DNA of 64,000 nucleotides from an uncultured Candidatus Micrarchaeota archaeon (GCA_963741095.1 CAVUGN010000002.1:192001-256000); one strand, 5' to 3'. Positions 2,545 to 53,933 are shown, counted from the first letter of the stretch. Notes: a model not told the origin generated them from the sequence alone. Translations and numbers: made by a program.

Positions 2545-2545
2545 T

Positions 2546-4060: not shown

Positions 4061-4088
4061 AAAACTCAACACCGAATTAATACAGCCT

Positions 4089-5144: not shown

Positions 5145-5205
5145 ACCACTAACCTTGGATTGTTACTAATTTAAACCTAGATGGTGTAAACCAAAAGGTG
5201 GAAGC

Positions 5206-5868: not shown

Positions 5869-5884
5869 TGCTATTATCAACCGG

Positions 5885-6637: not shown

Positions 6638-6668
6638 TATCCCATCCTTTAACTTGAACCATCATAAT

Positions 6669-6775
6669 AGCCCCAAGAGGGAATCAAACCCTCGACCTTT
6701 TGCTCTGTGGCTTTTGATAAAACTTTTACCAAAAGTTTTTACCATGCAAACGCTCTATCACTGAGCTACTGGGGC
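6669..6775 (-). tRNA. tRNA-Thr(GGT) with a 35-nt canonical 37/38 intron (6705-6739)
   Basis: Acceptor GCCCCAG/TTGGGGC, anticodon arm TTTGC-ATGGTA[intron]A-GCAAA, T-arm GAGGG-TTTGATT-CCCTC; intron forms hairpin CTTTTGGTAA/TTATCAAAAG. Confidence 0.9.
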
Positions 6776-6831
6776 AGCAGAATAATGATTGCGCAAGGAA
6801 TTTAATAAAAGTTTGCATAAGCAGCACCGAC

Positions 6832-7986: not shown

Positions 7987-8036
7987 ACTCTATTATAAAA
8001 TGAATAACTTATTAAAGAATATTAAAAGTGCGGAGC

Positions 8037-9497: not shown

Positions 9498-9608
9498 CAA
9501 ACCACGCATCACATTCGGCGCCGCAAAAGAAATAACTTTCTCCTCTCCTGCGCACATCGCAAGGGATAAATATATTGGGAGCGTTGTAGAGAGCAAGGGG
9601 GTGCACGG

Positions 9609-15600: not shown

Positions 15601-16811
15601 CCAGCGCGCTCACCTACGCAAATTCGATGCAGCCCAGCATCATACCAGTCTTCCAGCTCTTCGCCCAGTCGTCGTACCTCTACGGCCTCGACCTCGACCT
15701 GAGCCTGAATCCGAACATCTACGGCTACAACCGGCTCGTCTACACCTTTGTCGACAGCTTCAACAACATCATAACCGCGCCGCTCGACGCAGACCTCGCC
15801 AACATAGCCACAGTCACCGCCTCGGTGCAGACGACGACCAATCCGCTCAACGCGAACGAGACCAACGTCATAGTCTCGGGCACCGCGATGTACACGCTGC
15901 CCTCCGGGATGCAGCCCCTGCCTGCCGGTTCGCCGATATACCTCTACTACGACACCAACATCAACTTTTACAACAGCATAGTCAGCCCAGCAGACTCCGA
16001 TCCGACGAACTACTACCAGTATTCGCTCCAGTGCGCCTTCTCCACAAGCCTACAGGCCTGCCAGTTAGCCAATCCGCTATCGACATTGACGCAGCCTGCC
16101 GGCGCCACAAACCCGAAGACCTTCGGCCCAATCGAAGCCAACGTGATCACCTTCCAGACCCAGTACGATTACAACGCAGTCGACTACCGGGCGGGCAACC
16201 CGCTGGCCGGCACCACTGTGCCCCAATGCGCTGCGACGCCAAGCAGCCTCCTGGACCTGCCGGCCTGCCTGCTGAACAGGGCCAAATGCGAGTGCAACAT
16301 CAACGGCGACTACGGCCTGGATCCGATACGGTCCGACCCCTACAATGCCAAACTTGACGAGTACTGCGAGCCAGTGTACGACGACGGCAACGGCATCTTC
16401 ACCTCGCAGATAGGGCTTGTCGCGATCGCCAACACGCTGCCTGACGGCACGTTCAACGCCGTCTTCGACACCTGCGGCTCCGGCACGCCCTCGATAGTTG
16501 CACAGTACTACGGCTACCCGCCGCCAGAGCCGCTGCCTGTCTTCCAGCCCTCGCTGCCCTACTCGGCCAACGCCTTCCTCTTCGAAGTGCCGCCCTCCGG
16601 CTTCGTGACCTCGAACGAATTCAACTACGCGTACTCTCCTGCCTCGCAGTCGGCATCCTTCAACATAGGCAGCTACGCCCTGCCGTTCGGCGACGTGGAC
16701 CCGGCAGCGCTCATGCTTGCAGCGTTGGCGCTGCTGATCATATCCTACGCAAAGCGCGCCACGCAAAAACCCTCCGGAAAGGCGCAAACGGACGATGTGA
16801 ACAAGGATTAA
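9609..16811 (+). CDS. Giant (2400 aa) secreted, C-terminally membrane-anchored surface protein with an N-terminal spherulin-4/GH135-like domain and Cys-rich repeats
   Basis: N-terminal signal peptide; VP.Y, IVN..GPG, GYV.T.YG, GIFFDE, IGNPG, IITIYE motifs; Ser/Thr linkers; C-terminal TM segment plus basic tail. Confidence 0.8.
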   Translation: MKNLLRISFFLLLSLLALSSVSKISVAAPGIMVPYYIDLSNSASLNELISAHTSNPSVPMIVIVNLGNPGGPGTSSSPTSLSAIQQMQNSGITVVGYVDTDYGAISQSTEETEMQEWKSWYGVTGIFFDEMAASSGYETYYTTLTSYAKSTLGMSLTIGNPGGPTQSSYVHTVDIITIYESPGMPSTGSLNTFGDPASNFALIAYGVPSAPSASTLSSYSPYVSYLYVTDASGGNPYDVLPSYFSSEVAALNTGGATTTSTSSSSSSSTIATNPCTTCEDNCLAGCGSDIGCATNCGGGAGETCYAACSSGTTAPTTTIPTDPCTACEDNCLSGCGSNIGCATNCGGGPGETCYNACGTTTVPTTTIPTDSCTACEDNCLADCGSDLGCAASCGGSFGETCYVACGSTVTSIPTTTIPQGQSGTCVGGDPTSPCTFLDAVESSTTYDGAGGGTIVQLPPNTNPSPLPIISEVLQQNAQDAQFLLTCPNNPDASQTLEYLTSDLPGQTSYIMGDKCLAESAPLQTSVARQIVVSWSGYVPASSTASVAFDNLAIGAVSNLAYSGGSDTNGNRNYNLSNGYDSASYISGQVPASPQYGIWTWNAEYANLAAVNAGLSALQTPDALTNLQILDINQHQFSGNPLYCKSTLEYTSPCGATTTSTSSIGSTTTTSSTYGPCGEYSVSYIDPTTGEITCVSGHTTAPLPVRQYQPVNSVAPASVNASNLHTPKTMANVGDDSGGGDCVSDAVPDCGGNPYYVRSLVPTNYYWSCSYLYNYQVNAEVSNLGNTQIPVPVQTATLPQKPYLLMNNFPYGGFVEQSLPGSCSDLDLFHGTPCDDWTKISSSATLYLANGKKYGVNVYVDPADPSNYWTVYSTSWFGYIGFSLHTGFVPITSLTYKSVGALPYLLYNISMPAEIGAINNREEYLNLSYDIYSPHNYLDPANYLEPLPLSTDSGLFAAYKSGSATDLGIFPSNMLSLSNPYVAGLDEAVTSFLSSIINLPAGLSSLAIFGSNVRVGNYYTGVLANPIYLSAAPNDYIYALTSAEPCTFWILGCNQHIYLYTMRFIPAGDLNLTNNQPNALGPITCADSSTCPDAWNALWTSSSGYWANSLREQSQNLYVTNVYPISSTGSSFWASGNWQHDAANNNPSIAPTAVTTDYDDDLFMLGCDNGSCSNFKFAEMIPGAGGGNYIYDAGQTPAGFKATGELAADPDGQYVYVAGENYGNVLVYGTPPNSNFIYLSSVPLSFSNPAYNFNVVSYLASGGPFGNALIASAYSNIAGVNDVSSNHHPLAISEYDGFLYVLDNWTFKVPVNVNGALEEMSSAILLVRAFTENGMEVPIDGSSMNYLVPAFGGAVSTTTGVSVPQGGWAPYGWPISANIMVTPFAPDGGAVPTHISYCAAGCTYSPNTISTGYPPIGPAISEDGRIAESGKNADLGFSTDFNGTSYMIAHDYNWVDGVPGVSTCSSCSSSYTELLSFKLNLLNYTTLSYGANSPYTCYIGGNTVVYPSTPCTYDTTSNIVDIYAPILGVPSSFDYVESEGSPQQFTSITGLLTSSVPGGVDTSQYSGKATQQPITASCVDGTTGESTGTPLCARSSETPACASSTTLSCTSGGTPTCPSGAPTCTDVTTNIFCSNGDQGAVPTCADLSNPTCVSTGGSTNKPECADKSAPLCTPTDPNQPLGTAECSTQVQPLCPDGTTLPSCNTETDPSNAPQCNTGLQVQCPSGLSATPCASPGSAPTCLSLNTLPPPPGGTGVSAIMNTYVNSVITGYLLVPYHYTYQMWQQWSPDPIPTGSVYSSYSFNPGDDVMVNGALPGDDFSGTLCPPFTLPPPVPAPNAGVATLTDQANTIYTMNQVNMQSNYLQDDIQGGDTYLQLGELSQINQAYYTSNLSDAGTVTYPDLSYNIFTNRWYGEMFVNQTIGPQNFVPVVLAGAQVMNAVQTDNYWLEDYVQQEANGQTFPAYAAQDVLPLASPKIGADCGGTGCPANYYYDPLLSPLSSALTYANSMQPSIIPVFQLFAQSSYLYGLDLDLSLNPNIYGYNRLVYTFVDSFNNIITAPLDADLANIATVTASVQTTTNPLNANETNVIVSGTAMYTLPSGMQPLPAGSPIYLYYDTNINFYNSIVSPADSDPTNYYQYSLQCAFSTSLQACQLANPLSTLTQPAGATNPKTFGPIEANVITFQTQYDYNAVDYRAGNPLAGTTVPQCAATPSSLLDLPACLLNRAKCECNINGDYGLDPIRSDPYNAKLDEYCEPVYDDGNGIFTSQIGLVAIANTLPDGTFNAVFDTCGSGTPSIVAQYYGYPPPEPLPVFQPSLPYSANAFLFEVPPSGFVTSNEFNYAYSPASQSASFNIGSYALPFGDVDPAALMLAALALLIISYAKRATQKPSGKAQTDDVNKD
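10422..10863 (+). repeat. Three in-frame tandem repeats of about 145-150 bp encoding 8-Cys modules (CTxCEDNCLxxCGSxxGCAxxCGGxxGETCYxAC plus PTTTIP linker)
   Basis: Visible directly in both DNA and protein. Confidence 0.9.
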
Positions 16812-16816
16812 ATGCG

Positions 16817-17362
16817 CTACACGCGCCTCAAGAACTCTTCAAGAATCACATTGAGGCTGTCCTTCGCATGGCGGATCGGATCGGGCATCGAGTTCTGCAC
16901 CAGCCAGTACTCATCGCAGAAAGCCGGCAGGCGGTTGTTCATGCGGGAATTCAGGGCCTCCTTGCTGATCGTCGAGGCGATTATGAGGTAAAAGCCATCG
17001 CCGTACCTGAGCCTGAACCTGTGGTATTTGTCCACGGCGATGTGTATCTCATCATCGGTGAGCGTGGACATGGAGTGCGGCTCTATGATCACGCGTTTGC
17101 CATCGACCCTCAACTCGGTCACGAAATCCGGTACGTAATGGTCAACCTCATGCAGGACATTCAGGTGCATGATGAACGGCTCATAATAAGTCTTTATTCT
17201 GTGCTGCCGCAGACAATCCATGAATGCATATTCGTAGCCGGTGGTAACGCTGGTCTTTGCGGATATCGGCGTGATAAATCCCATATCGAGCAGCGTTTTC
17301 GCTTCGTCCGTGCTTAGAATATGCGTTCTTGCGTGATGCACCGCTTCGTGGCACTTCGTCAT
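16817..17362 (-). CDS. Putative PD-(D/E)XK-fold nuclease
   Basis: YYEP...YVPDF...VIIEPH; real start probably ATG at 17362, since the longer ORF overlaps aIF5A. Confidence 0.55.
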   Translation of the reverse strand: MTKCHEAVHHARTHILSTDEAKTLLDMGFITPISAKTSVTTGYEYAFMDCLRQHRIKTYYEPFIMHLNVLHEVDHYVPDFVTELRVDGKRVIIEPHSMSTLTDDEIHIAVDKYHRFRLRYGDGFYLIIASTISKEALNSRMNNRLPAFCDEYWLVQNSMPDPIRHAKDSLNVILEEFLRRV

Positions 17363-17545
17363 GCGAATACCTTTTTCATCCGATAAGCCATCAATTAAAA
17401 TAATACTTATACCTGCCTGATCCGTGGAATACGGCGCATTTCCGGCAGTTTGCGTCCTGCACCGCAACCGCTGCGCCCATGCCGAGAAGGTGTAAGCTAT
17501 ATATACTTTCTTTAACAATTTAATCCAATTTCTCTGGTTGTTCAA

Positions 17546-17947
17546 ATGGCTGACGATATAACCCCAGTGCCAATGAAGGACATGCGCGTTGGCAGGTTCC
17601 TGATGATAGACGGCATAGCGTGCAGGGTCGTGGACATAGACATAAGCTCGCCGGGCAAGCACGGATCCGCGAAGATGAGGATAACCGGCATAGGCATCTT
17701 CGACGGGCAGAAGAAGACACTTCTGACGCCCAGCCACTCTGACGGCGAGGCGCCGGTCATAAAGAAGACCAAGGCACAGGTCGTCTCGGTCGGCGAGAAA
17801 ACGGCGCAGCTCATGGATTCGGAGAGCTTCGAGATATACGAGCTGCCGATCATAGAGGAATTGGCGGGCAAGCTGCATCCGGGCAACGAGGTGGAAGTGA
17901 TAGAGGCGACGGGCAGGAGGGCAATGGCAAGGATACTAGGGGGTTAA
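17546..17947 (+). CDS. eif5a: Translation factor aIF-5A
   Basis: Hypusine loop SSPGKHGSAK. Confidence 0.95.
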   Translation: MADDITPVPMKDMRVGRFLMIDGIACRVVDIDISSPGKHGSAKMRITGIGIFDGQKKTLLTPSHSDGEAPVIKKTKAQVVSVGEKTAQLMDSESFEIYELPIIEELAGKLHPGNEVEVIEATGRRAMARILGG

Positions 17948-17948
17948 C

Positions 17949-18293
17949 ATGGAATTGAGCATAACATCAAACAAGGAGAACAAGCTGTTGGGAAGAAGAG
18001 AGATCGAGTTCAACGTGGTTCAGGAGAGCAGCACCCCATCAAAGAACGAGATAAAGGCGGAGCTGTGCAAGAAGCTCAACCTGGATCCCGATTCCGTGAT
18101 AGTGGTCAAGATGGACCAGAGCACCGGAGTCAAGCAGGGCCGCGGTGTCGCGCACGCTTATCCTTCGAAGGAGATGGTCGAGAAGTTCGAGCCCGCTTAT
18201 CTTGTAAACAGGATGAAGGGCATAAAGGGCGCCAAGGTCGCAAAGGAGAAGAAGGGACCGACCGCGAAGAAGGAGGCTCCGGCTGAGAAGTGA
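17949..18293 (+). CDS. rps24e: 30S ribosomal protein S24e
   Basis: KENKLLGRREI.F, TPSK, G.AHAY, EP.Y. Confidence 0.9.
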   Translation: MELSITSNKENKLLGRREIEFNVVQESSTPSKNEIKAELCKKLNLDPDSVIVVKMDQSTGVKQGRGVAHAYPSKEMVEKFEPAYLVNRMKGIKGAKVAKEKKGPTAKKEAPAEK

Positions 18294-18298
18294 TTCGA

Positions 18299-18448
18299 AT
18301 GGCCGACAAAAAAGACGCGAAGAAAGCCAAAGCCTACAAGGCTGGCAAGATGTGCCCGAAGTGCAACTCAAGGATGGCCGAGCATTCCGACCGCTACACG
18401 TGCGGCAGGTGCAGCTACACTGAGTTCAAGCATGTTGCAAAGCAATGA
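18299..18448 (+). CDS. rps27ae: 30S ribosomal protein S27ae (not in the ORF track)
   Basis: Manual translation MADKKDAKKAKAYKAGKMCPKCNSRMAEHSDRYTCGRCSYTEFKHVAKQ; conserved position after S24e. Confidence 0.92.
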   Translation: MADKKDAKKAKAYKAGKMCPKCNSRMAEHSDRYTCGRCSYTEFKHVAKQ

Positions 18449-19139
18449 TGTAGTGGCATCCAAACGAAAGAGCAAGGCGAAGAGCAAGGGCAGCAGCAAA
18501 CTCGTCAGGTACGCATTCTATTCGATAACAGTATTCATTGCGATTGTGGGGTGGTTCGTGCTCGGGGAACTCTACCTGCACGGGCTGATCACCCAGACCG
18601 CCTTCACCGCCGACGCTTCCATAGAGCTGTCCCTGTTCTTCCCGTTCATAGTGTTCTCGTACCTGCTGGCGAAGAAAAACAAGCTAAAGAACATAGTCAA
18701 CGATCTCGGCCTTTCAAGGAAGAGCCTGACGCTCAAGAACATCCTTATCGGCATATTTCTCTTTGGCCTCATACTGCTTTCGGAGTTCCTCATAGGCCTG
18801 TTCACCACGGTGACTGGAATACAGCTGCCGACCAACGTGAGCGCGGTGCTGGCCGGCATGCCCATCTATTTCCTGGTCTTCACTTTCCTCATAGCGCCGA
18901 TAGACGAAGAGATACTGTTCAGGGGTTTCCTCGTGCCGCGTCTGGGCATAGTCGAGAGCGCCCTGCTGTTCGCGCTGCCGCACCTGCTCACATACGCCTC
19001 CTGGTCCGAGTTCGTAGCGGCCTTCGTGTTCGGCATCCTTGCGGGCTACTTCTTCAAGAAGCAAAAGTCGCTGTACATAACCATCCTCGCCCATCTGCTT
19101 GTCAATTTCCTGACTATAGCGGCGATGATGCTGCTGTGA
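18432..19139 (+). CDS. CPBP (Abi / CAAX type II) intramembrane metalloprotease
   Basis: EEILFRG, FALPH, AHLLVN; start may be GTG at 18453. Confidence 0.9.
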   Translation: MLQSNDVVASKRKSKAKSKGSSKLVRYAFYSITVFIAIVGWFVLGELYLHGLITQTAFTADASIELSLFFPFIVFSYLLAKKNKLKNIVNDLGLSRKSLTLKNILIGIFLFGLILLSEFLIGLFTTVTGIQLPTNVSAVLAGMPIYFLVFTFLIAPIDEEILFRGFLVPRLGIVESALLFALPHLLTYASWSEFVAAFVFGILAGYFFKKQKSLYITILAHLLVNFLTIAAMMLL

Positions 19140-19843
19140 TGGCCGTGGCCCTTATAGACGTAGCCCTGATGGAGCCCAAGTACCAGGTCAACCTCGGCTA
19201 CATCGCAAGAGTAATGAAGAACTTCGGGGTGGAGAGGCTGTACCTGATAAACCCGAGGTGCAACTACAAGGGCAAGGAGGCCATAAAATATTCGAAGCAC
19301 GCCCACTCGCTGCTCGAGCATGCCAGGCTGCCGAAGAGCATAGCCGAGGCGACGAAGGGCGCGTTTGTCATCGGGACGACCGGCCTATGGAGCAAGACGG
19401 ACAAGTCCTTCCACAACGTCTACAGCCTGCAGAACTCCGGACGCCTGCTAAGGAACGCGGGCCGCAGAAAGAAGGTGGTGCTGCTGATAGGCAGGGACGA
19501 CACCGGATTGAGCAAGAACGAGCTGCGGGAGTGCGACGCTACGATATTCATCGGAGCCAGCAGGGACTACCCGGTTCTGAACATCTCGCACGCGCTGGCG
19601 ATAATGCTCTACGAGCTGACCAGAATGAGCTACGGCAAGGAGTACGAATTCATGGACTCGCTCTACGCGGATGCCAAGCGCCAGAGGATGGTCCTCCTGC
19701 TCTTCAAAAGGATGATAAAAGGCAACAAATCGATAAGGGACAAGGAATCCGTGGCGATGGCGTTCAAGCACGTCCTCAGCAGATCCGCTCCGACGAGGAA
19801 GGAGGCGAATGCGATCTCGATAGCGCTTGCGGGGGCGCGCTAA
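19139..19843 (+). CDS. trmJ: SPOUT RNA methyltransferase, TrmJ family
   Basis: EPKYQVNLGYIARVMKNFG, LLIGRDD.GL..EL, YPVLNISHA; ATG overlaps the upstream TGA. Confidence 0.85.
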   Translation: MAVALIDVALMEPKYQVNLGYIARVMKNFGVERLYLINPRCNYKGKEAIKYSKHAHSLLEHARLPKSIAEATKGAFVIGTTGLWSKTDKSFHNVYSLQNSGRLLRNAGRRKKVVLLIGRDDTGLSKNELRECDATIFIGASRDYPVLNISHALAIMLYELTRMSYGKEYEFMDSLYADAKRQRMVLLLFKRMIKGNKSIRDKESVAMAFKHVLSRSAPTRKEANAISIALAGAR

Positions 19844-40845: not shown

Positions 40846-40894
40846 CCTAGCACCAATTTACACTGGGCAGGCAAAAACTAAAAAGCTGCGCAAG

Positions 40895-40978
40895 TACAAC
40901 GACGCAAGTCGTTGTATCCATGCGCTACTCCACGCAGTAATGACTAATTAATTGCATAGATACGAATATTTAAATATT
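40895..40978. promoter_or_regulatory. Perfect hairpin (40895-40916) and 14-bp palindrome AATATTTAAATATT (40965-40978) over the putative TATA box upstream of the secretion-like operon
   Basis: TACAACGAC-GCAA-GTCGTTGTA; the palindrome contains TTTAAATA. Confidence 0.5.
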
Positions 40979-41055
40979 TATCTGAGTAAAATAGTTATAC
41001 TAAAGTAAAAGATGAAGTAGCTGATTACATAAAGAATGTTTTGTGGGTGAGTGAA

Positions 41056-41412
41056 TTGGGATATGGATACAAAATCGCAAAGTACGTAACGATACCTCTG
41101 ATGGCATTGGCGCTCTCAACCAGGAGCGTCACTGCGGCGTCCGCGCCCGTGGTGTCTGAGATAAACAGCATAAAGTTGGTACTCATGCAGGTTGGACCGG
41201 CACTGAGCGCAGTGCTCTTTGTGCTTGCCGGCATATTCTATGCTATAGGCCAGATGCTGCCGCCCGACAAAAAGGCAAATTTCCATACCGCGGCAGTCAA
41301 CATAATAATTGGCGCTGTGGTTGTCGGTGCGCTGAGCGTTGCGTCGACTTCGCTTGCCATTGCTTCTACGCATTTGATCGGGAACCTGACCGCAATCAAT
41401 TCAAGCATCTAA
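41056..41412 (+). CDS. Small membrane protein, VirB2/TrbC/CedA1-like pilin candidate
   Basis: Signal-like N-terminus, then two hydrophobic helices joined by a short basic loop (PPDKKA); first gene of an operon with VirB4-like ATPases. Confidence 0.55.
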   Translation: MGYGYKIAKYVTIPLMALALSTRSVTAASAPVVSEINSIKLVLMQVGPALSAVLFVLAGIFYAIGQMLPPDKKANFHTAAVNIIIGAVVVGALSVASTSLAIASTHLIGNLTAINSSI

Positions 41413-41424
41413 CAAGGTTTCTAC

Positions 41425-42474
41425 ATGAGCGGCGTTGGCATCTATGGCGTGTCCGTAGGCATAATAGCAATAATGCTTGCGGTCTCGGGCATTGTTCTTG
41501 GCCTAGGATATGCGCTTGACGACAAAAGGCTGAAGGAATTCGGGCGCGACGAGCTGCTCCAATCCCTGATAAACGGCGCGATAGTCGGCTTCCTCTTCGT
41601 GGCATTCGGCAGTTCCGGATTCTTCACGCTTCTGGTGAACTCGCTCGCGAGCAGCCAATCCGTTGTGGCCTCGTGCCCTGCGTCAATCAATGCAAACTAC
41701 GCCATATGCTTCGCCTACAACTACCTCGTCGGCGTCTCCCCGGTCCGCATAAACGGGGCAAGCTACCCCTCCCTGATGGATGTGTCTTTGCCGTTGCTCG
41801 TTGGCGTATCCGCCTCTTACACCGCGCTTAGCCTCATAGGATCCATGCAATTCAGTATCGGGGTGTTCAGCATAAGCCTGACGAGTGCGCTTTCGCCGCT
41901 TCTGACGCAACTCAGCTACCTGATGAACGTGCTTACCTTCGCAATAACCGGCATAGAGGTGCAGGCAATACTGCTCGAGTTCATAGCAATAACCGCGGTG
42001 CCCGTGCTGTTGCCCGTGGGCATCGCGCTCAGGGCGCTGTACCTCACACGGAAGCTCGGCGGCGCGATGATAGCGATCACCATAGGGCTTTTCGGCGTCT
42101 TCCCACTGACGTACCTGCTCAACGCCGGGCTCACAAACAGCTATTTCAACACCACAAGCGCGTCCACCACCGATTCGCTTATCTCAAGCCTTGGCACAAT
42201 GAATGACAACCTTATGAACACAGTGTCCAGCGCAAGCACCTCGCAGAACAGCACGGTGCGCAACGGCATGCTAAATTCATTGTCGGGCACCATAAGCGGG
42301 CTGATGGGCGGCGCCGAGACAATCATAAAGGAACTCCTAAACGTTATCGCCTTCCTGATAATCGACATCTTCTTCCTCCCGGTTTTCAGCCTTATACTCA
42401 CCGCGATATCTATCAGGGAATTCGCAAGGATACTCGGCTCAGAGGTGTCCTTCGGGAAACTGTTCATATACTAG
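41425..42474 (+). CDS. Polytopic membrane protein, VirB6/CedA-like candidate
   Basis: About 6-7 TM segments; LLP.GI.LR....TRKLGG..IAI.IGL motif; extracellular Cys pair. Confidence 0.55.
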   Translation: MSGVGIYGVSVGIIAIMLAVSGIVLGLGYALDDKRLKEFGRDELLQSLINGAIVGFLFVAFGSSGFFTLLVNSLASSQSVVASCPASINANYAICFAYNYLVGVSPVRINGASYPSLMDVSLPLLVGVSASYTALSLIGSMQFSIGVFSISLTSALSPLLTQLSYLMNVLTFAITGIEVQAILLEFIAITAVPVLLPVGIALRALYLTRKLGGAMIAITIGLFGVFPLTYLLNAGLTNSYFNTTSASTTDSLISSLGTMNDNLMNTVSSASTSQNSTVRNGMLNSLSGTISGLMGGAETIIKELLNVIAFLIIDIFFLPVFSLILTAISIREFARILGSEVSFGKLFIY

Positions 42475-42481
42475 TGGTCGC

Positions 42482-43204
42482 TTGAACGATGTGATCTTTT
42501 ATGGAATGCTTGCCGCGGTGCTGATCCTATCATTGTCAAGCCTCCTGAGCCTTAACGTCTTCCTGATCGCACTGAGCCTGTTGGCCGTGCTTACGTTGAT
42601 CCTGACGCAAAAACTTTGGTTCGTGGTCGAGGCCTTGGTGTTCAAGCACACAAGCCTCATACAAGTGCTTGGCGATCAGCAACTGAGCGGAGACCGTTCG
42701 GCCGCCATAAGGCGGGCGAAGGGCGGGTTTGTTGCAACAACAATGGCCCTCCTCAGGGGCGATGCCCGGGAGAATGTGGACCGGGAAAAGATAGAGGCGA
42801 TAATAGCGCACCTGAACTACCCATTCCGGTTTGTGCTTGACGTAAAACGGCTTGACGCAAACAAACTACTCGATAAGCTCCAAACCAAAAGAAGCCTCAA
42901 GGAGATAGCCCTTTCAAAAATGAGCGCAAACGGTCCGAGCGCCGCAAAAATGAGCGCGATCAAGCGTGAGATAGAAGAGATAGAGCGGGACATAAGCAAC
43001 ATAAGCGCGAGCACGCCCGTGAGCCTTGCAAGGTACATAGCCACCAGCGCAAAATCCGAAAGCCGATTTGCAGCAGAAGAGCATGCAAAATCCCAGATAA
43101 GGGCACTTGCAAGCGAATTCGGCACGCTGCTCAACTCGGAGGCTCAAATATTGGCTGGCACCGACCTGCTGGAATGCCTTGAAATCGATTCGATGGTCCG
43201 ATGA
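42482..43204 (+). CDS. Membrane-anchored coiled-coil protein (possibly equivalent to a VirB3/PrgI or VirB4 N-terminal module)
   Basis: Two N-terminal TM segments, central coiled coil; stop overlaps the ATPase start. Confidence 0.5.
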   Translation: MNDVIFYGMLAAVLILSLSSLLSLNVFLIALSLLAVLTLILTQKLWFVVEALVFKHTSLIQVLGDQQLSGDRSAAIRRAKGGFVATTMALLRGDARENVDREKIEAIIAHLNYPFRFVLDVKRLDANKLLDKLQTKRSLKEIALSKMSANGPSAAKMSAIKREIEEIERDISNISASTPVSLARYIATSAKSESRFAAEEHAKSQIRALASEFGTLLNSEAQILAGTDLLECLEIDSMVR

Positions 43205-44583
43205 GCGCAAACTTCATATCCAATTCGGGCGTTGTCGCGGGATGCGTGTGCATGTCTGCAATGTCTGAGCCGCAAGCAGAGCAAAGCGAAGCTGGGGTGT
43301 ACCTGGGCAACACAAAGATCTATCGCACGCCCTTCTATCTGGACACAACAAAATTGGTAAACCCCCACGTGGTGGTGCTCGGGATGTCCGGCTCCGGAAA
43401 GACCTACCTCCTGAAAAGCATCGTGGCAAGAAGCCGGATGTACAATTCAACAAGAGTTCTTGTGGTGGATTGGAACGGGGAATACAAGGAGCTTGTGTCC
43501 TTCCTGGGCGGCAAGACGCTACGGCTGGGTGCGGATTCGCGCATGAACATGTTTGAACTATTCGATGTCGGAAAAGACAAAGGCGCCAGGGCCGTACTCG
43601 ATGCAATGGACAAGATAGTCAGATTCAACCGAAAAGAGCGCGCAATCGTATACCGGTTTATGCTCGATTCAACAAAAAGCGCGAATGCGGCTCTGAACCT
43701 AAAAATGCTGATAAAGCAGCTCAATGTCGATCCACAGAACACCTATGCCGATTCAAAGCTTAGGCAGCTTATGGGAAATCCCCTTTTTGCCGACCACACC
43801 AATTTCGACATCAAGAGCATTCTGGACGGGGTTACCAGCATAGACCTCTCCGGTTTAAAGGATGACGGGCAAAGGGGCGAGGTGGCCAGGGCCGTACTCG
43901 GCATACTGATCAGGGCGATGCATCGTTCAGAAATGACCAGCTCTGCCAGGACCCTCATAGTGCTCGACGAGGGGTGGCGCCTGCTTGGAGATTCGGAAGA
44001 AGTTTCAACCCTATTCAGGGAGGGACGAAAGTACGGGTTTGGCCTTGCAATTGCAACCCAACTGGCAAAGGATGTGAACAACGAAGCGATGGCAAACGCG
44101 GCTTTTATCGCCATTTTCAAGCTCCAGAGCGGCGAGGATTATGACCTATTGACCGAGGCTGGAATCATATCCGGAAACGACATCCCGCTATTGTCTGGAT
44201 TGGACGTGGGCAAATGCATGATCCGCCTGGCGAAGAAAGAATCTTCAGAAGATGCAAGAAAATTTCTCATGGGCAGGATAGAAGGTGTGCACACTGAAAT
44301 TTACAATCTTGTGTGTGAGCGTATGGACATCTCTGTTTCAGGAAGAAAATTCCTCGAGGAGACGGAAAGGCTGACTGCAAACATCGAAACAAAAAGCAGG
44401 ATAATCGATTTTGCGAACGAGAATGGGCGAAACATCGATCTAACCGCTTTGGTAAAGTTAACGCTCCGATTGGGCATGAAACGGCCCGAAATAGTGCCGT
44501 ACTTGAAGGCGCTGGGGGTGGACGACCTATCAATAATCAAATCGTGTGAGGCAGCCGATTTTGCGGCTCTAGAATTCATGTGA
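43201..44583 (+). CDS. VirB4/HerA/FtsK-superfamily ATPase (CedB-like)
   Basis: NPHVVVLGMSGSGKT, VDWNGEY, Walker B LIVLDEGW, REGRKYG, ATQ. Confidence 0.85.
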   Translation: MSANFISNSGVVAGCVCMSAMSEPQAEQSEAGVYLGNTKIYRTPFYLDTTKLVNPHVVVLGMSGSGKTYLLKSIVARSRMYNSTRVLVVDWNGEYKELVSFLGGKTLRLGADSRMNMFELFDVGKDKGARAVLDAMDKIVRFNRKERAIVYRFMLDSTKSANAALNLKMLIKQLNVDPQNTYADSKLRQLMGNPLFADHTNFDIKSILDGVTSIDLSGLKDDGQRGEVARAVLGILIRAMHRSEMTSSARTLIVLDEGWRLLGDSEEVSTLFREGRKYGFGLAIATQLAKDVNNEAMANAAFIAIFKLQSGEDYDLLTEAGIISGNDIPLLSGLDVGKCMIRLAKKESSEDARKFLMGRIEGVHTEIYNLVCERMDISVSGRKFLEETERLTANIETKSRIIDFANENGRNIDLTALVKLTLRLGMKRPEIVPYLKALGVDDLSIIKSCEAADFAALEFM

Positions 44584-44587
44584 TGCC

Positions 44588-45268
44588 GTGGAAAATGACA
44601 ATACGCTGATATGCGGCGCTTTTCATGCTCGTGCAGAGCCGCGCAGCTCCCTCATTGACATACGAAACGCTATGAAAGGCATGCCGGAAGCGAAACACAC
44701 CTCAACGGGCACAAGAATGTTATACTCCATCGGAGTGGCTGGCGACCGAAATGCACCAGAAGCGATGCTAGAACTGGCGCCCAAAGGGATAACCTTTACC
44801 TTCTATTTCAAAGAACCAAATCATCGTGTGTATAAACACAACCTGCTTCGATTCCTTTCGATCCTGGCGTACTTGAAAGACGAATACTCCGTGGACATCA
44901 GCGAAATCTACGGTTATGTGATAGAAGCACTGAGATACGAAGATTACACGTTGACACAAGAAGCCGCCAGCATCGTCTACCAACCGAACGAACGCATGGA
45001 CGTGCTTAACCGTGTGAACGTTTCGCTATCCCACGAGCTTTCATTGAAAAACGAGCGCATCAGAACGATGGACAAGCAGCTTGCTGCATACTTCTCTTTT
45101 AGCAAAAAGCTGATCCAAAAACTTTCAGTAAGCTGCAGCAGCGCGTCCCCCAACACAAATGAAATATTGAAAATTGCCGGAATAGATGAGGGTCTCGCAA
45201 AAGATATTCTACTGTTGATCGATGGAAACATCGGTGGCGACAAAAAAGATGGCGATAAACATGATTAA
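44588..45268 (+). CDS. Hypothetical protein with a coiled-coil segment
   Basis: Co-oriented; RBS GTGA 4 nt before GTG start. Confidence 0.6.
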   Translation: MENDNTLICGAFHARAEPRSSLIDIRNAMKGMPEAKHTSTGTRMLYSIGVAGDRNAPEAMLELAPKGITFTFYFKEPNHRVYKHNLLRFLSILAYLKDEYSVDISEIYGYVIEALRYEDYTLTQEAASIVYQPNERMDVLNRVNVSLSHELSLKNERIRTMDKQLAAYFSFSKKLIQKLSVSCSSASPNTNEILKIAGIDEGLAKDILLLIDGNIGGDKKDGDKHD

Positions 45269-45965
45269 TCTTGACTTCATGCTCTATGCTGCAAGTCCAA
45301 ACGCGTACAATGGCAGTTATTACGCGCTACTGATACCAATCGGTGCAATAATCTTCTTATTAATCAAGGAGATGTCCGATTTTGATTCGGTAAACAAAGG
45401 AATATCAATTCGAACCTGTTGCGAAGCAGAACACGCCGAAGTGATCAAAGTCGACAAGAAACTCTTCCAAGCCGTTCTGAATCGCACCAAAAGACTAGAC
45501 GATGGTACGCTTGCCGTTAAAGATATGGCCGTGAACCTTGGCACATTCGCCAACACGATGTCTGCAGAAATAGGGGCGACCTCCCGTACAGATCCGATCC
45601 GATACACAAAACTGATAAAAAACTGCAACAAGGTCGTACATGGAAACCTAATCTGCTTTTCGGATACGCCCTACCTGGAAGCCAATGCAAGATCATACTA
45701 TGACTGGGCAATCAAAAACAGCACGATAAAAATAAAAAAGAGATCGAACGCCAAAAATTTCCTAGATTCGTGCGGATTTGTATGCTATGCTGAACTTTGC
45801 CAGGATTCGATCAGACCCGGGGCAAAAACAAAAGATGTGAAGATAGGCGTCCTAAACAAAGCGGAGTTAGGCGCCATGTCCTGTTTAGAAAGCTTATACG
45901 ACAAGGGTAGTGCATTGCTGTTGTTGCAGAAACTAAACAAAACAGTGCAGGTGATTAACTGCTGA
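45261..45965 (+). CDS. Hypothetical protein with an N-terminal TM anchor
   Basis: YYALLIPIGAIIFLLI; overlaps neighbouring genes. Confidence 0.55.
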   Translation: MINLDFMLYAASPNAYNGSYYALLIPIGAIIFLLIKEMSDFDSVNKGISIRTCCEAEHAEVIKVDKKLFQAVLNRTKRLDDGTLAVKDMAVNLGTFANTMSAEIGATSRTDPIRYTKLIKNCNKVVHGNLICFSDTPYLEANARSYYDWAIKNSTIKIKKRSNAKNFLDSCGFVCYAELCQDSIRPGAKTKDVKIGVLNKAELGAMSCLESLYDKGSALLLLQKLNKTVQVINC

Positions 45966-46147
45966 ACTTTGCGAAATATTTTGCTAAGATTGGGCTTTCC
46001 ATTGCCCTGTTGCTGTTTAATGCTGGTGCCATATCCCTTCTATCCGGCCATACCCTGGGAGTCAAGCCCCTCAACTCGTTAGCCACGAACATTCTCCTCG
46101 GAGCAACAATACTTACTGCATTTTCAACGCTTGCCTTTATTCTGTGA
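45959..46147 (+). CDS. Small two-TM protein with an apparent CTG start (not in the ORF track)
   Basis: GGTGA RBS, 4 nt, CTG; LLNFAKYFAKIGLSIALLLFNAGAISLLSGHTLGVKPLNSLATNILLGATILTAFSTLAFIL; fills the operon gap exactly. Confidence 0.55.
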   Translation: MLNFAKYFAKIGLSIALLLFNAGAISLLSGHTLGVKPLNSLATNILLGATILTAFSTLAFIL

Positions 46148-46151
46148 TGGT

Positions 46152-46442
46152 ATGCTAAAAAATGTGAAATCATTCTATGCAAAAAACAACGCATACGAGA
46201 TGTTATTCGCATCGTTCACTGCAGGCATAACTGCGTTTTTCATGATTTTTGGCATCACGAAACTTGCAGGATTCCAACCAACCCCCTTCATCGGATATTT
46301 TGCCTCAATTGTTTTGCTTCTTGTCATCCTTTCCACCGCATCAGCGTCAACAAGAAAAGCGTTTGTCATACCAAGAGCATCCAAAGTCCTGCTGCTCGCC
46401 ACGCTTTCAATATCCCTCATAATATTCCACGCGATAATATGA
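46152..46442 (+). CDS. Small three-TM membrane protein
   Basis: Three hydrophobic segments; ATGA overlap with the next ATPase. Confidence 0.6.
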   Translation: MLKNVKSFYAKNNAYEMLFASFTAGITAFFMIFGITKLAGFQPTPFIGYFASIVLLLVILSTASASTRKAFVIPRASKVLLLATLSISLIIFHAII

Positions 46443-48724
46443 CAAACAAACTGCTTTTTTACCAATTTTCCACAATGCCTTCAAAAGGTATTGAAAAGGA
46501 CAAGTTTTTTGCTGGAATTGGCAAAAAAGAGTTCATCCTGGTTTACGACACAACAAACCGCACTACTCTCATGGGCATCCCAGAAGATATAGCAGAAGAT
46601 AAGATCGAAGAACTTCAGAAAATAATTCCTGGCATGACCATGGAAAAGAGCAACAACCCTATCGGGGAATCGCAACTACTTGACGCAATATCTTTTTATA
46701 AAAAGCCGAAAGAGCAAATAACTTATGATGTGCCTGACCCTCACGATATCCACGACGTTTTTGAGCTTGCACGCGGTGATTTTCTCGCGGTAGCATTCAT
46801 ACCTGTTAGCGATAAAGAACTAGACCAAACAAAAAACTATCTTGAGAAAACGCTAAGCAGAAGGAACGTGAAGGAAACCTACTCCGTAATAAAGAATTCG
46901 CTTCAATCACGTGTAAACGTTTCATCACAGCGGGACATGTTTATTGAATCAGAAGAGGCCGTAATGCTCAACGACGTGCTAGAGTCGATTAACAATGCAG
47001 TACTAACCAAAAGCCCAATCTATAAACCTTTTTTTATAGTGCCCTATGGTCCAAGCAAAGTCCGCGAATTCATAAGTACGAGGTTCCTTATACTTGATAC
47101 CTACGAAAGCAATGATTCATTAGAGTTGCTATTGTCGAAGCTGATTAACAAGAAGTCTTTCCCTCTCGGATTAGAGCATCTCAAACCCCTACTTGATCCA
47201 TACGGCGCTCAGAAGCTTAGCTATGCCCTACCAACAATGATGCCTACCCCAAGAAGCGGGATAGCGGTGGGCACATTCATGAAAGACGGGGCTGTAGATA
47301 CCCCTCTCGATATCAAGATAGAACCATCCACGATAAATCTCGGTTTTATCATAACTGGTTTACCTGGCTCCGGCAAAACAACCGAAGCCATGGCAATAAT
47401 CGATACTCTATTAAATGAAAAAAACAGGCCGCGGGTGGTCGTAATAACTCCAACCACTGAATGGGATAAATTTGCTATTTCACATGGCATGTACCTGATC
47501 AAACTATACGATGACAAAACTCCAATAAATCTTTTCAGAAAGCCACCGTGCATAAACCGGGAAAAATTCTACGAGAGTCTTGCAACGGTGCTTTCTAGTG
47601 CGTCTAATGCTGGTCCATACCAAAACCCTATGGAAAAATGTATGCTTAATGCTTTTAGGAAAATTTATGCGAAAGAAGAGGAACCCGACCCAGTAGCAGT
47701 GTATGAAGAAATAGAAAATTCAATAATAGAATTGCATGCAAAAAGGACCAATACGGGTGTGAAATACACAAAACATGGGGAAAACATACGATCCGCACTC
47801 GAAAATCTAAGAAGCATACTATGCAGGCCCGAATTTTCTGTGCAGTCTGGCATAAAAATCGAAGACCTATTGAGTAGTGGAGTTATCTACAACATATCGA
47901 GCGCAAGTGGTACAACAAGAGCGTACCTGTATGCACTCCTCCTGAATCAGATTTATGCAATAACCTCTAGTCTCGATGCAAAAGGCGACGGCGAATTAAG
48001 GTTGCTGGTCTGTCTCGAAGAAGCCCAGACGATGTTCAGTGACAAGGACTCTGCCGCAGTAGTAGACATAAAACAGCGAATACAGGATTTCAGAAGGCAG
48101 GGGGTGGGGCTGATGATATTAACACACAACGTCAATGACATAGATTCTGGAGTAAGACGATTATGCCAATTGAAACTCTACCTAAAACAAGCATCTGATG
48201 TTGCAGTAGTTGCATCAAAGGATCTTGTATTTACGTACGCTAATGAAGATGATGTCACATTGAAATTAAAACTGCTTGATTCTAGAATCGGAGCATTCAG
48301 TTACATTACAAAGTCGGGCTTAGAAAAAATGACGCAGGACACAATATTCATCCGGACTAAAGAGTACAACAACAAGAGTGATAAATCCTATGAAAATCCA
48401 TTAGATTTGCTATTAAAAAATAATCTATTTAAATTATCCTGCAAACTAGATGTGATTGTGCATATAGCTGTAGATAGAACTAATGAGAATGCTTGCCGAA
48501 TTGCGGCGTCAATGTGCACTTTAAAATTTAGATATCTGGGTGAAGTGATAGCAGAGCATTCAATCGAAATGAACCGGGATATAATACAACCCTTGTTTGA
48601 GGGTAAAACATACAAAATCCAGATATTAGATAAAAAAGGAAAAACCATGAAAGAATTTGATCTAAAAGTCAAAGATAAAATATTCATCACAGTATCCGAA
48701 GACCGGATTAATATAAACAACTGA
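46439..48724 (+). CDS. Second VirB4/HerA/VirD4-like ATPase (761 aa)
   Basis: Walker A ITGLPGSGKT, Walker B LVCLEEAQ, FRRQGVGLMILTH; long N-terminal domain. Confidence 0.75.
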   Translation: MTNKLLFYQFSTMPSKGIEKDKFFAGIGKKEFILVYDTTNRTTLMGIPEDIAEDKIEELQKIIPGMTMEKSNNPIGESQLLDAISFYKKPKEQITYDVPDPHDIHDVFELARGDFLAVAFIPVSDKELDQTKNYLEKTLSRRNVKETYSVIKNSLQSRVNVSSQRDMFIESEEAVMLNDVLESINNAVLTKSPIYKPFFIVPYGPSKVREFISTRFLILDTYESNDSLELLLSKLINKKSFPLGLEHLKPLLDPYGAQKLSYALPTMMPTPRSGIAVGTFMKDGAVDTPLDIKIEPSTINLGFIITGLPGSGKTTEAMAIIDTLLNEKNRPRVVVITPTTEWDKFAISHGMYLIKLYDDKTPINLFRKPPCINREKFYESLATVLSSASNAGPYQNPMEKCMLNAFRKIYAKEEEPDPVAVYEEIENSIIELHAKRTNTGVKYTKHGENIRSALENLRSILCRPEFSVQSGIKIEDLLSSGVIYNISSASGTTRAYLYALLLNQIYAITSSLDAKGDGELRLLVCLEEAQTMFSDKDSAAVVDIKQRIQDFRRQGVGLMILTHNVNDIDSGVRRLCQLKLYLKQASDVAVVASKDLVFTYANEDDVTLKLKLLDSRIGAFSYITKSGLEKMTQDTIFIRTKEYNNKSDKSYENPLDLLLKNNLFKLSCKLDVIVHIAVDRTNENACRIAASMCTLKFRYLGEVIAEHSIEMNRDIIQPLFEGKTYKIQILDKKGKTMKEFDLKVKDKIFITVSEDRININN

Positions 48725-48750: not shown

Positions 48751-48791
48751 TTTATATTTATCAGTTGATATATTAATCAGTTGATTAATAT
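48751..48791 (+). promoter_or_regulatory. TATA box plus palindromic operator of the wHTH/RelE-like module
   Basis: TTTATAT at 48751; ATCAGTTGAT twice; perfect inverted repeat ATATTAATCA-GT-TGATTAATAT (48770-48791). Confidence 0.65.
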
Positions 48792-49080
48792 GTACCCAAA
48801 AACAACCGTAATCTTCAAACCCAGATTGATTGATCGGTCGCCACGTTTAGAGACAATATTGATGATAGAATCGATGCTTTACTTACACCGAAGTGATAAA
48901 ACTATAACTCAAATTTGGAGATTGTTGCCAAAGAAAGTTATGTGGACCACCTTCACAACAGTTTTAAAATACCTGGAACATTCTGGTAAAATCTATGTTG
49001 AAAAAGACAAAACCATAACATGGCTCTGGGATCCAAAAGGCGTGGAAAAATTCAAGAAAAGTAAGTTAGTGATAAAATAA
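48790..49080 (+). CDS. Small winged-helix protein (putative antitoxin / autoregulator)
   Basis: SPRLETILMIE, TQIW..LPKKVMW.TF..VL.YLE.SGKI, W.W.P. Confidence 0.65.
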   Translation: MYPKTTVIFKPRLIDRSPRLETILMIESMLYLHRSDKTITQIWRLLPKKVMWTTFTTVLKYLEHSGKIYVEKDKTITWLWDPKGVEKFKKSKLVIK

Positions 49081-49427
49081 ACGACAATAGAATAAAAAAA
49101 GTTAGTTTTGCAGATGAAAAACTTCTTAATGCATTTAATAAACTCAAAACTGGCAAATTCGAAGACAAAAAATTAGCGTCCGAAATAAACGACGTTATCA
49201 ATAAACTCAAAGAAGACCCTCTTTGTGGTATTGAAATAGCAAAACTATTGTGGCCTATAAAATATATACGAGAATATGATATAAAAAATCTGAAAAAGTA
49301 TAATCTACGGAATGGGTGGGGATTAATGTATACCGTTAAAGAAGATCCGGTAGAAATTATATCCATAATACTAGAATGGCTGGATCACAAAAATTATGAA
49401 AGACGATTTGGTTATAAAAGTCATTAA
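49077..49427 (+). CDS. RelE/ParE-like toxin homolog with an apparent ATA start (not in the ORF track)
   Basis: Manual translation INDNRIKKVSFADEKL...LKEDPLCG..I...LWP.KY...NL.KYNL.NGWGLMYTV...IILEWLDHKNYERRFGY; ATAA overlap with the upstream stop. Confidence 0.65.
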   Translation: MNDNRIKKVSFADEKLLNAFNKLKTGKFEDKKLASEINDVINKLKEDPLCGIEIAKLLWPIKYIREYDIKNLKKYNLRNGWGLMYTVKEDPVEIISIILEWLDHKNYERRFGYKSH

Positions 49428-53617: not shown

Positions 53618-53745
53618 ATCATCTCCATTCTAGATTTTTTATCGTAACGGCTCGTTGCAAATCCCTGAGAAAGTGGATGCGAAGACTTCCAGTTAAAAAA
53701 AAGGCCATTCAGCGTTTCCATCTCTACCATGCTCGTGGGCATATA

Positions 53746-53853
53746 CCGGACCCAGGCAGACTGGCTTACCCATTATGGGATTACAGTTGCGGCACAGCAG
53801 TGGATTTTCACCACTTTCCCCTGACTTCCACTGGATCTGAACCCAGTTGTCCG
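53746..53853 (-). promoter_or_regulatory. Cobalamin riboswitch aptamer
   Basis: Minus strand CGGAC...AGGGGAAAGTGGTGAAAATCCACTGCTGTGCCGCAACTGTAATCCCATAATGGGTAAGCCAGTCTGCCTGGGTCCG; matches the B12-element core and B12 box; P1 CGGAC/GTCCG. Confidence 0.88.
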
Positions 53854-53933
53854 TTAATTAGCCTTCATAAACAATATCTATAAAACTATCTCCGCTCCGC
53901 GGAACACAAAAAGAGTCGTAACTAAGCGACAGA

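Follow-up and report, generated by a model that had tools for sequence, protein, structure and literature searches.

A putative domesticated type IV secretion operon with a VirB2-type pilin and two HerA/VirB4-superfamily ATPases in Candidatus Micrarchaeota

Described systems and the micrarchaeal operon

Domesticated type IV secretion systems (T4SS) that import DNA have been described as Ced in the Sulfolobales and as Ted in the Thermoproteales (PMC9905601). Ced, with CedA, CedA1, CedA2, CedB, CedD and CedE, is chromosomal and relaxase-less and combines a small two-helix VirB2-like pilin with a polytopic protein of six to seven transmembrane (TM) segments and two paralogous ATPases of the HerA/VirB4 clade (PMC9905601, PMC11868833), CedB and CedD, which jointly stand in for VirB4 (PMC11868833). 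The same general features are met in an operon of nine tightly packed genes, here numbered g1 to g9, all on the plus strand at positions 41041-48724 (open reading frames called on the window) of a 64,000-nucleotide stretch, the window, from an uncultured Candidatus Micrarchaeota archaeon (GCA_963741095.1, CAVUGN010000002.1:192001-256000). We consider it reasonably probable that this operon derives from conjugation (type IV secretion) machinery, resides in the chromosome and is inherited within the lineage, and that it is functionally of the Ced/Ted kind with a composition of its own. That its products build a T4SS-derived pilus or translocation machine appears quite likely; DNA taken in as the substrate is a tentative proposal drawn from analogy.

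Several traits set the operon apart from Ced. Its ATPases score far below the equivalog cut-offs, and g2 is without detectable similarity to CedA. CedD has a fused TM domain (PMC11868833), whereas the membrane parts are here encoded by separate, coupled genes (g3 and g8); Ced pilins are reported to be unprocessed (PMC9905601), whereas g1 has a putatively cleavable signal-like N-terminus; and the Ced genes are dispersed, whereas a single operon with the extra conserved slots g5 to g8 is found here, in a DPANN phylum. Because the CedB/CedD equivalog tests failed and no CedA match was obtained, we do not file the operon as a member of Ced. Ted (TedA, TedB, TedC) resembles it in several parts: its VirB2-like pilin has an N-terminal signal processed by signal peptidase I, its membrane protein is of the VirB6/CedA type, and its locus encodes a HerA-like ATPase besides a VirB4-like one (PMC9905601). 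This likeness is one of architecture only; unlike Ted, the operon has no ParA/MinD or Rad50 gene.

A bacterial parallel is the T4SS of Patescibacteria (candidate phyla radiation, CPR), which stems from monoderm MPF-FATA conjugation systems, belongs likewise to ultra-small host-dependent cells, has VirB2-like pilins and lacks relaxase and coupling protein; it is near-universal and chromosomal, and its repurposing for an epibiotic lifestyle has been proposed (PMC12102498, PMC10633639). It differs in being bacterial and in having a full-length VirB4 recognized by a VirB4 hidden Markov model (HMM), whereas the ATPases of the operon are CedB/CedD-like and split from the membrane parts. Moreover, essentiality has been demonstrated for CPR, whereas 16 of 74 genomes in one micrarchaeal family are without the system. 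The VirB/D4 systems, including R388 Trw, resemble the operon in their VirB2/TrbC-type pilin (Pfam), in the predicted fold of g9, which best matches TrwK/VirB4 chains, and, by position only, in the small TM gene g8 directly upstream of a large ATPase gene, as virB3 before virB4. They are unlike it in that no operon protein matches VirD4, relaxase, VirB6/TrbL, VirB8, VirB10 or VirB11 in the family libraries and in that the operon is not on a mobile element. Another DPANN ATPase of the T4SS type (VirB4/TraG-like) and proposed to act on the host is found in the nanohaloarchaeal 'SPEARE' proteins, where it is fused to a giant immunoglobulin-repeat surface protein and for which no pilin operon has been described (PMC10266531); here, in contrast, a compact operon encodes pilin, membrane proteins and two ATPases.

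No description of a T4SS-, Ced- or VirB2-type system in Micrarchaeota was found in the literature, subscription journals lying outside the coverage. Nearest to it come the T4SS of the CPR (PMC12102498, PMC10633639) and, in nanohaloarchaea, giant proteins with VirB4-like parts (PMC10266531), and a recent T4SS review treats archaeal plasmids and in the passages searched neither Ced nor DPANN (PMC12857230). The operon is best called a representative of the domesticated-T4SS kind in a phylum with none described. In existing databases its genes are labeled 'hypothetical' or generically 'ATP-binding', and genome surveys of DPANN symbiosis genes therefore miss it.

The pilin and the two ATPases

Gene order was compared in 15 loci from two families, fetched because they carry a match to the window-type g4, the presence of which is thus given by construction. 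In all 15, g1, g2, g3 and g4 are adjacent (tblastn), and in 11 g9 lies within the same stretch; the other four genomes carry g9 on a different contig or at a distance of 70-310 kb. Of 41 relatives, this genome counted, 34 have a g4-type match (E <= 1e-20). Sequence identity falls with taxonomic distance across the relatives and ranges in tblastn from 48-78% for g1 over 36-46% for g9 to about 29-40% for g4. Two expectations of a first-pass annotation, made from the DNA sequence, are hereby borne out, namely nine tightly packed co-directional genes and a conserved gene order. The nine-slot layout, judged by gene size and TM count, recurs in relatives of other genera, which speaks against a chance arrangement.

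Judged by its sequence, the product of g1 (41041-41412; 123 amino acids [aa]) is a VirB2/TrbC-type pilin, made as a precursor with a signal-like segment and two TM segments (TM counts throughout stem from a Kyte-Doolittle hydropathy script, not from a trained predictor). Pfam model PF18895 (T4SS_pilin) matches 14 of 15 orthologues (best E = 4.8e-7) and PF04956 (TrbC/VirB2) nine of 15 (best E = 4.2e-6), both counted at E <= 0.01, and among the matches listed one or the other is precomputed on about 37 of 120 relatives. The two-helix VirB2-like pilin suspected from the first reading of the sequence is thus well founded. In the alignment, the hydrophobic signal-like segment at the N-terminus ends at an Ala-rich site, two hydrophobic helices are joined by the almost invariant basic loop PPDKKANFH, and an N-x-T sequon stands at the C-terminus; 22 columns are invariant, including N115, and T117 is nearly so. 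VirB2 and the signal peptidase-processed TedC (the latter according to PMC9905601) have the same layout. No match to solved structures was found with the g1 sequence. Gene g1 is the best-conserved gene of the operon, a pattern that would fit a tightly packed filament subunit.

The first ATPase gene, g4 (43201-44583; 460 aa), encodes a protein with intact Walker A (GMSGSGKT) and Walker B (VLDEGW) motifs and the motif REGRKYG...ATQ, followed in the alignment by a helical C-terminal part of about 110 aa. Its P-loop domain begins near residue 30, and it therefore has neither the N-terminal domain of VirB4 nor the barrel of HerA. Pfam assigns DUF87 (2.3e-14), AAA_10 and P-loop_TraG. Among the NCBIfam models, CedB (NF041017) ranks highest (1.4e-23, 83.4 bits, cut-off 700), CD1110 VirB4 gives 8.5e-18, VirB4_CagE (TIGR00929) 1.2e-15 (56.8 bits vs a cut-off of 643) and CedD (NF053655) 1.7e-15 (56.7 bits, cut-off 600), while repair HerA models reach about 7e-6 (24.8 bits, cut-offs 800-970). 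The picture is the same for the orthologues, of which 16/16 match CedB (best 1.3e-23), 15/16 CedD (1.2e-23) and 16/16 CD1110 VirB4 (Gram-positive VirB4 at best 3.4e-18); anti-phage HerA (1.7e-17), TraC and VirB4_CagE rank lower, and repair HerA is weaker still. In plasmids, tblastn with g4 hit 48 records, and all of the 25 listed fall under VirB4/TraC/DUF87-type genes. On the basis of these sequence models we read g4 as CedB/CedD-like and as standing on the border between HerA and VirB4; CedB and CedD were themselves formerly classed within the HerA clade (PMC11868833). As a side observation, an insert of about 90 aa after Walker A (g4 residues ~110-200, window 43500-43830) is present in seven of 16 g4 orthologues and absent from nine, giving lengths of about 460 and 365 aa, respectively.

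The second, g9 (46439-48724; 761 aa), is likewise a soluble ATPase. An alpha/beta domain of about 270 aa at its N-terminus is followed by a P-loop domain, into which a conserved subdomain is inserted, and by a C-terminal domain rich in beta structure; the alignment shows Walker A (GLPGSGKT), Walker B (LVCLEEAQ) and RRQGVGLMILTHN. The insert is highly conserved and sits at the position equivalent to the variable insert of g4. Alignment of the two families (hhalign 96.8%, E = 2.3e-10, 249 columns) indicates that g4 and g9 are remote paralogues. Six of 12 g9 orthologues match CedD (best 1.9e-7), and four match VirB4_plasma, the mycoplasma VirB4 model. In a Foldseek search of the PDB with the AlphaFold2 model of g9 (predicted local distance difference test score, pLDDT, 77), chains of 8rtd, the inner-membrane complex of the R388 T4SS, come out on top over almost the entire length of g9 (E = 6.3e-14, 875 aligned columns); from the chain length and the named entries we infer that they are VirB4. 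Sulfolobus HerA 4d2i follows (2.3e-13), then named TrwK/VirB4 entries, and the TM-score against the VirB4 C-terminal domain 4ag5 is 0.69. Large VirB4-like phage proteins and a 'conjugal transfer protein' are the best matches in a library of viral structures (E to 4e-21), in which A32-type packaging ATPases score 4e-4 or worse, so g9 is not an enzyme of capsid packaging. No match to g9 was found in plasmids (tblastn).

Membership of both ATPases in the HerA/VirB4 superfamily is certain, and a place in the VirB4 clade rather than with HerA does not emerge clearly; the placement rests on rankings of curated HMMs and of structures, which conflict in part. To this extent, the two ATPases of the VirB4/CedB/HerA clade announced by the first-pass annotation are confirmed by NCBIfam and by the Foldseek result for g9, and both proteins fail the CedB/CedD equivalog cut-offs with CedB and CedD still their best-matching named families. 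Grouping with repair HerA or with viral packaging enzymes, named in that annotation as an outcome that would speak against it, is not cleanly excluded: the PDB profile of g4 favors HerA over VirB4, and packaging ATPases are poor matches to g9. The suggestion that g9 is an analogue of VirD4 is not sustained. The protein is soluble and matches CedD/VirB4 models and VirB4 structure, and PF02534 (TraG/VirD4) finds nothing in the genome.

Membrane proteins, genes without family assignment and a second cluster

Next to the pilin gene, g2 (41425-42474; 349 aa) encodes a protein with about six to seven TM/hydrophobic segments and a small Cys-bearing loop. It adjoins g1 in all 15 loci (36-56% identity, tblastn), its AlphaFold2 model (pLDDT 75) is all-helical, and its 175 relatives in the databases are all 'hypothetical' and without Pfam domains. 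The VirB6/CedA-like character attributed to it initially agrees with topology, size and position only, and the sole hint beyond these is an ESM-Atlas lead, a neighbor cluster 'CedA1 domain-containing' at rank 11 (score 0.91), with the family on 23% of its members. In 17 family members no Pfam match to VirB6, TrbL or CedA was obtained at E <= 1, nor was there an NCBIfam match. When the AlphaFold2 model was run through Foldseek on the PDB, no match was better than E = 0.18 and no T4SS chain was listed, with R388 T4SS entries in the library, and the profile against PDB sequences yielded nothing but noise from ABC-transporter TM regions (0.002). Comparison of g1 with the N-terminus of g2 by hhalign gave 1.6%, and the VirB2-VirB6 link seen in Ced is therefore not reproduced. 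Homology of g2 to VirB6/CedA is thus not supported by Pfam, NCBIfam, PDB profile, AlphaFold2 with Foldseek or hhalign, and the operon has no recognizable VirB6/TrbL-type polytopic channel protein in g2. We regard g2 as a candidate channel or platform in the position of VirB6/CedA/TedA.

The product of g3 (42482-43204; 240 aa) has two N-terminal TM segments (residues 1-19 and 24-42) and a long helical/coiled part, predicted to be cytoplasmic. It is present in all 15 loci (25-45% identity) and finds no match in the family libraries; we propose that it is a membrane anchor or stator for g4. An analogous role as membrane anchor for g9 is proposed for g8 (46131-46442; 103 aa, three TM), which is VirB3-like by position only. 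The alignment of g8 contains no invariant column and one nearly invariant Tyr, the identity in the genome of the same genus is 60%, and a prediction of the g8-g9 complex (score 0.02 vs a mark of 0.32) has no bearing either way. The intergenic gaps from g1 to g9 amount to 12, 7, -4, 4, -47, 44, -17 and -4 nt, and ATGA overlaps are found at the g3/g4 and g8/g9 junctions, so each soluble ATPase should be translationally coupled to a membrane protein.

Between the two ATPase genes lie g5, g6 and g7. Gene g5 (44588-45268; 226 aa) encodes a soluble protein predicted to consist of an N-terminal alpha/beta part, a coiled coil and a small C-terminal helical part. It is found in ten of the 15 loci (tblastn), has four invariant columns in the alignment and matches no family at significant E (PADLOC mREase_II at E = 0.0023 only); its PDB profile gave coiled-coil noise, and hhalign against g4 nothing. 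Gene g6 (45222-45965; 247 aa) encodes a bitopic protein with one TM, which matches the same-genus genome (54%), weakly one further locus (L021, 24%) and none of the other loci fetched. In other genomes its slot is filled by proteins of 200-270 aa, mostly with one to two TM (none in L023); no Pfam match was found in six positional equivalents, and the ESM-Atlas was uninformative (plant DUFs below 0.9, low recognition). The small hydrophobic product of g7 (46010-46147; 45 aa) has one TM as called. The frame is open for 15 codons 5' of its TTG (from 45966), a stretch that encodes further hydrophobic residues and holds no canonical start codon, and the protein is possibly longer, about 60 aa with two TM as in relatives, the positional equivalents being mostly 60-68 aa with two TM (46 aa and one TM in L029). 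Neither g7 nor g8 has an informative family match. All in all, g6, g7 and g8 evolve fast: sequence matches are essentially confined to the same-genus genome, and genes of similar size and TM content fill the slots in other genera.

The genome carries a larger paralogous cluster on the minus strand of another contig (C1, ~1400-19300; locus L006). It contains a 507-aa VirB4-like ATPase (DUF87, AAA_10, TraG P-loop), two g3-like proteins and at least three g2-like polytopic proteins (353, 446 and 548 aa) at 25-30% identity, and a g3 paralogue adjoins the ATPase. A coiled-coil protein, an unknown protein of 799 aa and two proteins of 178 and 182 aa with a weak pilin-like helix-loop-helix are also encoded; the latter two are a weak lead, with an hhalign probability of 7-13% only against the pilin and nothing in Pfam. 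ATPases of the same size class (~505 aa) match in many relatives, and in a genome from another family (L050) the g1-type pilin adjoins g2-like and g3-like genes and a C1-type ATPase (48% identity). Because of this pairing, the C1 type is possibly the older, class-wide form, and the window operon may be an order-level duplicate that gained g9. Three more genes or fragments of the HerA/VirB4 superfamily reside at C6:1178-3331 (717 aa), C2:24836-26599 (587 aa) and C7:26-232 (a fragment at a contig edge); none of the proteins of this genome attains the curated cut-off for repair HerA.

Distribution, proposed function and rival explanations

The phylum was sampled evenly with 301 genomes, the tallies taking in two unpublished ones (G054 and G202), and g9 was found in 106. 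It is present, almost always as a single copy, in both families of this order, f1 (56 of 74 genomes) and f3 (45 of 54); two other families gave weak partial matches (3/7 and 1/2), and the remaining ones none (e.g., 0/65 and 0/23). High-scoring orthologues of g1 show the same distribution (57/74 and 47/54), and most other families contain weaker pilin relatives, often in several copies (23/23, 62/65, 7/7), raising the total for the pilin to 230 of 301. In f1, where kin genomes are not independent of each other, both g1 and g9 are found in 55 genomes, neither in 16 and one alone in three. The two genes are thus kept or lost together, which would fit loss of a functional unit as a whole. Across 185,579 species genomes, the best 80 of 132 pilin loci are almost all labeled Micrarchaeota, a few bins being labeled Marsarchaeota, Acidoferrum, Acidiferrales or 'uncultured archaeon'. 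In about 16 genomes, the g9 match was reported with one in-frame stop (TAG, TGA or TAA), either an overhang at the end of the gene or a real interruption.

Marks of mobility were not encountered. Between 40200 and 49500 there are only short, chance-level repeats and no att-like direct repeats, no integrase is encoded in the contig region (the single PF00589 match of the genome is on another contig), and PF03432 (Relaxase) and PF02534 have no match in the 94%-complete genome, while control genomes respond. The absence of relaxase, integrase and att repeat noted at the outset therefore stands, and with conserved gene order and no hallmarks of mobile elements 'domesticated' is a fair word. The genome thus lacks the pair of coupling protein and relaxase that conjugative export requires. 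Since there is neither relaxase nor VirD4 nor integrase and a single copy is kept across two families, the system, which on sequence grounds is apparently vertically inherited, would serve the cell itself and not the spread of a plasmid. DNA import is our first choice of cargo because Ced and Ted import DNA, and also do so without relaxase and VirD4. Of the initial description as a Ced- or T4SS-like operon in a DPANN genome, the T4SS derivation, the Ced/Ted-like gene set and the micrarchaeal relatives are retained, and the VirB6/CedA and VirD4 parts are dropped.

We envisage that the g1 prepilin enters the membrane through Sec, is cleaved behind its Ala-rich site and is then kept there as a hairpin of two helices, an architecture that is apparent from the sequence and a processing step that would follow from it. 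By analogy with VirB2 and TedC pili, g1 would then be polymerized, probably with lipid, into a hollow pilus of the conjugative type, the lumen of which would be lined by the invariant basic loop and the glycosylatable C-terminus of which would point outside. Conserved linkage and topology suggest a base made up of the polytopic g2 together with g3, g6, g7 and g8, with g3 tethering g4 and g8 tethering g9. The hexameric-type ATPases g4 and g9, homologous to CedB and CedD or VirB4, would power extraction of pilin and translocation of the substrate. The most likely task would be moving DNA between cells, namely import, with kin or the host of the archaeon as the source.

A number of findings weigh against this reading, the failure to relate g2 to VirB6 or CedA among them. 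The g1 of the window itself stays below the Pfam gathering score for PF18895 (E = 1.7e-4, 22.1 vs 26.6 bits), g4 reaches 83 of the 700 bits set for CedB, and no operon protein attains any curated family cut-off. With the g4 profile, HerA-type chains of the PDB (9.5e-19 to ~1e-15; SIR2-HerA, DptH and repair HerA at the top) rank above the C-terminal domain of VirB4 4ag5 (7.8e-11), and no Ced protein is among the matches. HerA 4d2i is almost level with VirB4 in the Foldseek ranking of g9, and the sole clear match of the g9 profile to PDB sequences is a HerA. The 16 of 74 f1 genomes devoid of both g1 and g9 include one that consists of a single contig, and the system is therefore dispensable. Flanking genes are not conserved between genera, differences that we attribute to genome rearrangement in view of the inheritance and the absence of evidence for mobility. 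The distal half of the operon has a low GC content at third codon positions (GC3), and part of the operon may have been exchanged. Finally, the nature of the substrate and the direction of its transport are purely inferred, and the uptake of host DNA or nucleotides or the delivery of effectors envisaged at the outset is conjecture.

Among the other explanations, the most serious, albeit unlikely in our estimate, is a host-interaction organelle, that is, a pilus or channel that exports proteins or effectors or serves attachment or the exchange of lipids or metabolites, like the relaxase-less T4SS of Patescibacteria. The genome without relaxase or coupling protein shows the same pattern as the T4SS of Saccharibacteria, which has pilins, is essential for epibiotic growth (PMC10633639, PMC12102498) and has been suggested to export proteins or act in an alternative capacity (PMC10633639); the small genome (1.08 Mb), the pilin as the most conserved part and the wide occurrence of pilin relatives in the phylum point in the same direction. 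However, Ced and Ted move DNA without relaxase and VirD4 (PMC9905601), the best curated matches of g4 and g9 are the DNA-import proteins CedB and CedD, and the operon has no conserved gene resembling an effector, g5 and g6 evolving fast. We attach very little probability to the view that g4 and g9 belong, as helicases of the HerA type, to a module for DNA repair or anti-phage defense with unrelated membrane genes as neighbors. The top g4 profile matches, the PADLOC results (HerA models to 7e-18 and mad8 8.5e-16 for g4, mad8 2.2e-11 for g9) and the second place of HerA 4d2i with g9 would agree with it, but no NurA, Mre11, Rad50, SIR2, DUF4297 or Dnd partner was found among the nine genes by Pfam, NCBIfam or PADLOC, the N-terminal barrel is missing from g4, both ATPases are coupled translationally to membrane proteins, and the linkage to a VirB2-type pilin holds in 15/15 loci. 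CedB and CedD also outscore all HerA models on the g4 family.

The operon as the transfer module of an integrated conjugative plasmid, an integrative conjugative element or a provirus remnant is largely refuted and, to our mind, hardly credible, despite several features of its surroundings. The GC content of the 44-50 kb region is 0.40-0.46, down from about 0.52, and GC3 falls from 0.60-0.73 in g1-g4 to 0.41-0.53 in g5-g9 and 0.40 in g10. A low-GC pair with a weak YoeB-like frame follows just downstream, tRNA-Arg genes are located 5 kb downstream of the operon, the flanks differ between genera, and archaeal conjugative plasmids likewise possess only VirB4-/VirD4-like genes and no relaxase (PMC12857230). 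Yet the low-GC stretch recurs in the corresponding position of the same-genus genome (L048), though not in six other genera, which suggests an older replacement of the distal half or lineage-specific drift. The single-copy distribution over two families with divergence that tracks taxonomy, the lack of integrase and flanking direct repeats, the absence of viral or defense partners (PHROG matches exist only for the ATPase folds) and the plasmid searches, with nothing for g9 and, among the matches listed, only distant bacterial VirB4 for g4, all speak against an element. So do the borders, which are formed by housekeeping genes: on one side a divergent NUDIX gene that ends at 40845, with glutamate dehydrogenase and two ftsZ genes further upstream, and on the other RtcB.

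So far no machine dedicated to transfer has been attributed to Micrarchaeota, a gap within the wider question of how DPANN archaea draw nucleotides, lipids and genes from the cells that host them. A conjugation derivative of the Ced/Ted kind would be a concrete and testable candidate with two motor ATPases and defined membrane partners, and the 48-78% identity of g1 across genera makes the pilin usable as a target for antibodies or cryo-electron tomography. If correct, it would extend Ced/Ted-style domesticated conjugation machinery from Thermoproteota to DPANN, in parallel to the essential T4SS of CPR. It is a speculative and rather improbable further step that Micrarchaeota, and perhaps other DPANN, have an ancestral, vertically inherited, lipid-containing hollow pilus with two CedB/CedD-like motors that acts as a conduit by which cells poor in biosynthesis draw host DNA, as a source of nucleotides and genes, or lipids. 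Such a conduit would be an archaeal counterpart of the essential CPR T4SS and would mean that each of the two ultra-small radiations domesticated conjugation machinery for symbiosis on its own.

The extent of the operon given by the first-pass annotation proved right except at its beginning, where 41056 is an in-frame TTG and g1 is called from 41041. The AT-rich intergenic region in front of it (40846..41040, plus strand) probably contains a putative archaeal promoter of the operon, as read from the sequence, with a TTTAAATA-type box at about 40968-40981. The archaeon is very small and probably a symbiont, the window belongs to contig C2 of its genome, close relatives of the encoded proteins are labeled Candidatus Micrarchaeota, Micrarchaeia or Micrarchaeaceae, and NCBI now places the phylum as Microcaldota within the DPANN kingdom Nanobdellati. 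Downstream of g9, a gene for 99 aa (48781-49080, GC 0.34), which has paralogues on contigs C5 and C6, overlaps at its start with a 16-nt tandem repeat (48753-48784). The following frame (49086-49427) matches the YoeB toxin weakly (E = 0.009) and has no ATG, GTG or TTG before 49248; 48781-49427 possibly encodes a toxin-antitoxin pair in which a non-canonical start codon is used. The genome also carries intron-containing tRNA genes, to which Rfam adds two missed by ARAGORN (window 1158-1254 and 6669-6775), and a cobalamin riboswitch (Rfam, 40 bits) is located at window 53732-53869, upstream of a gene for a DUF6580 membrane protein.

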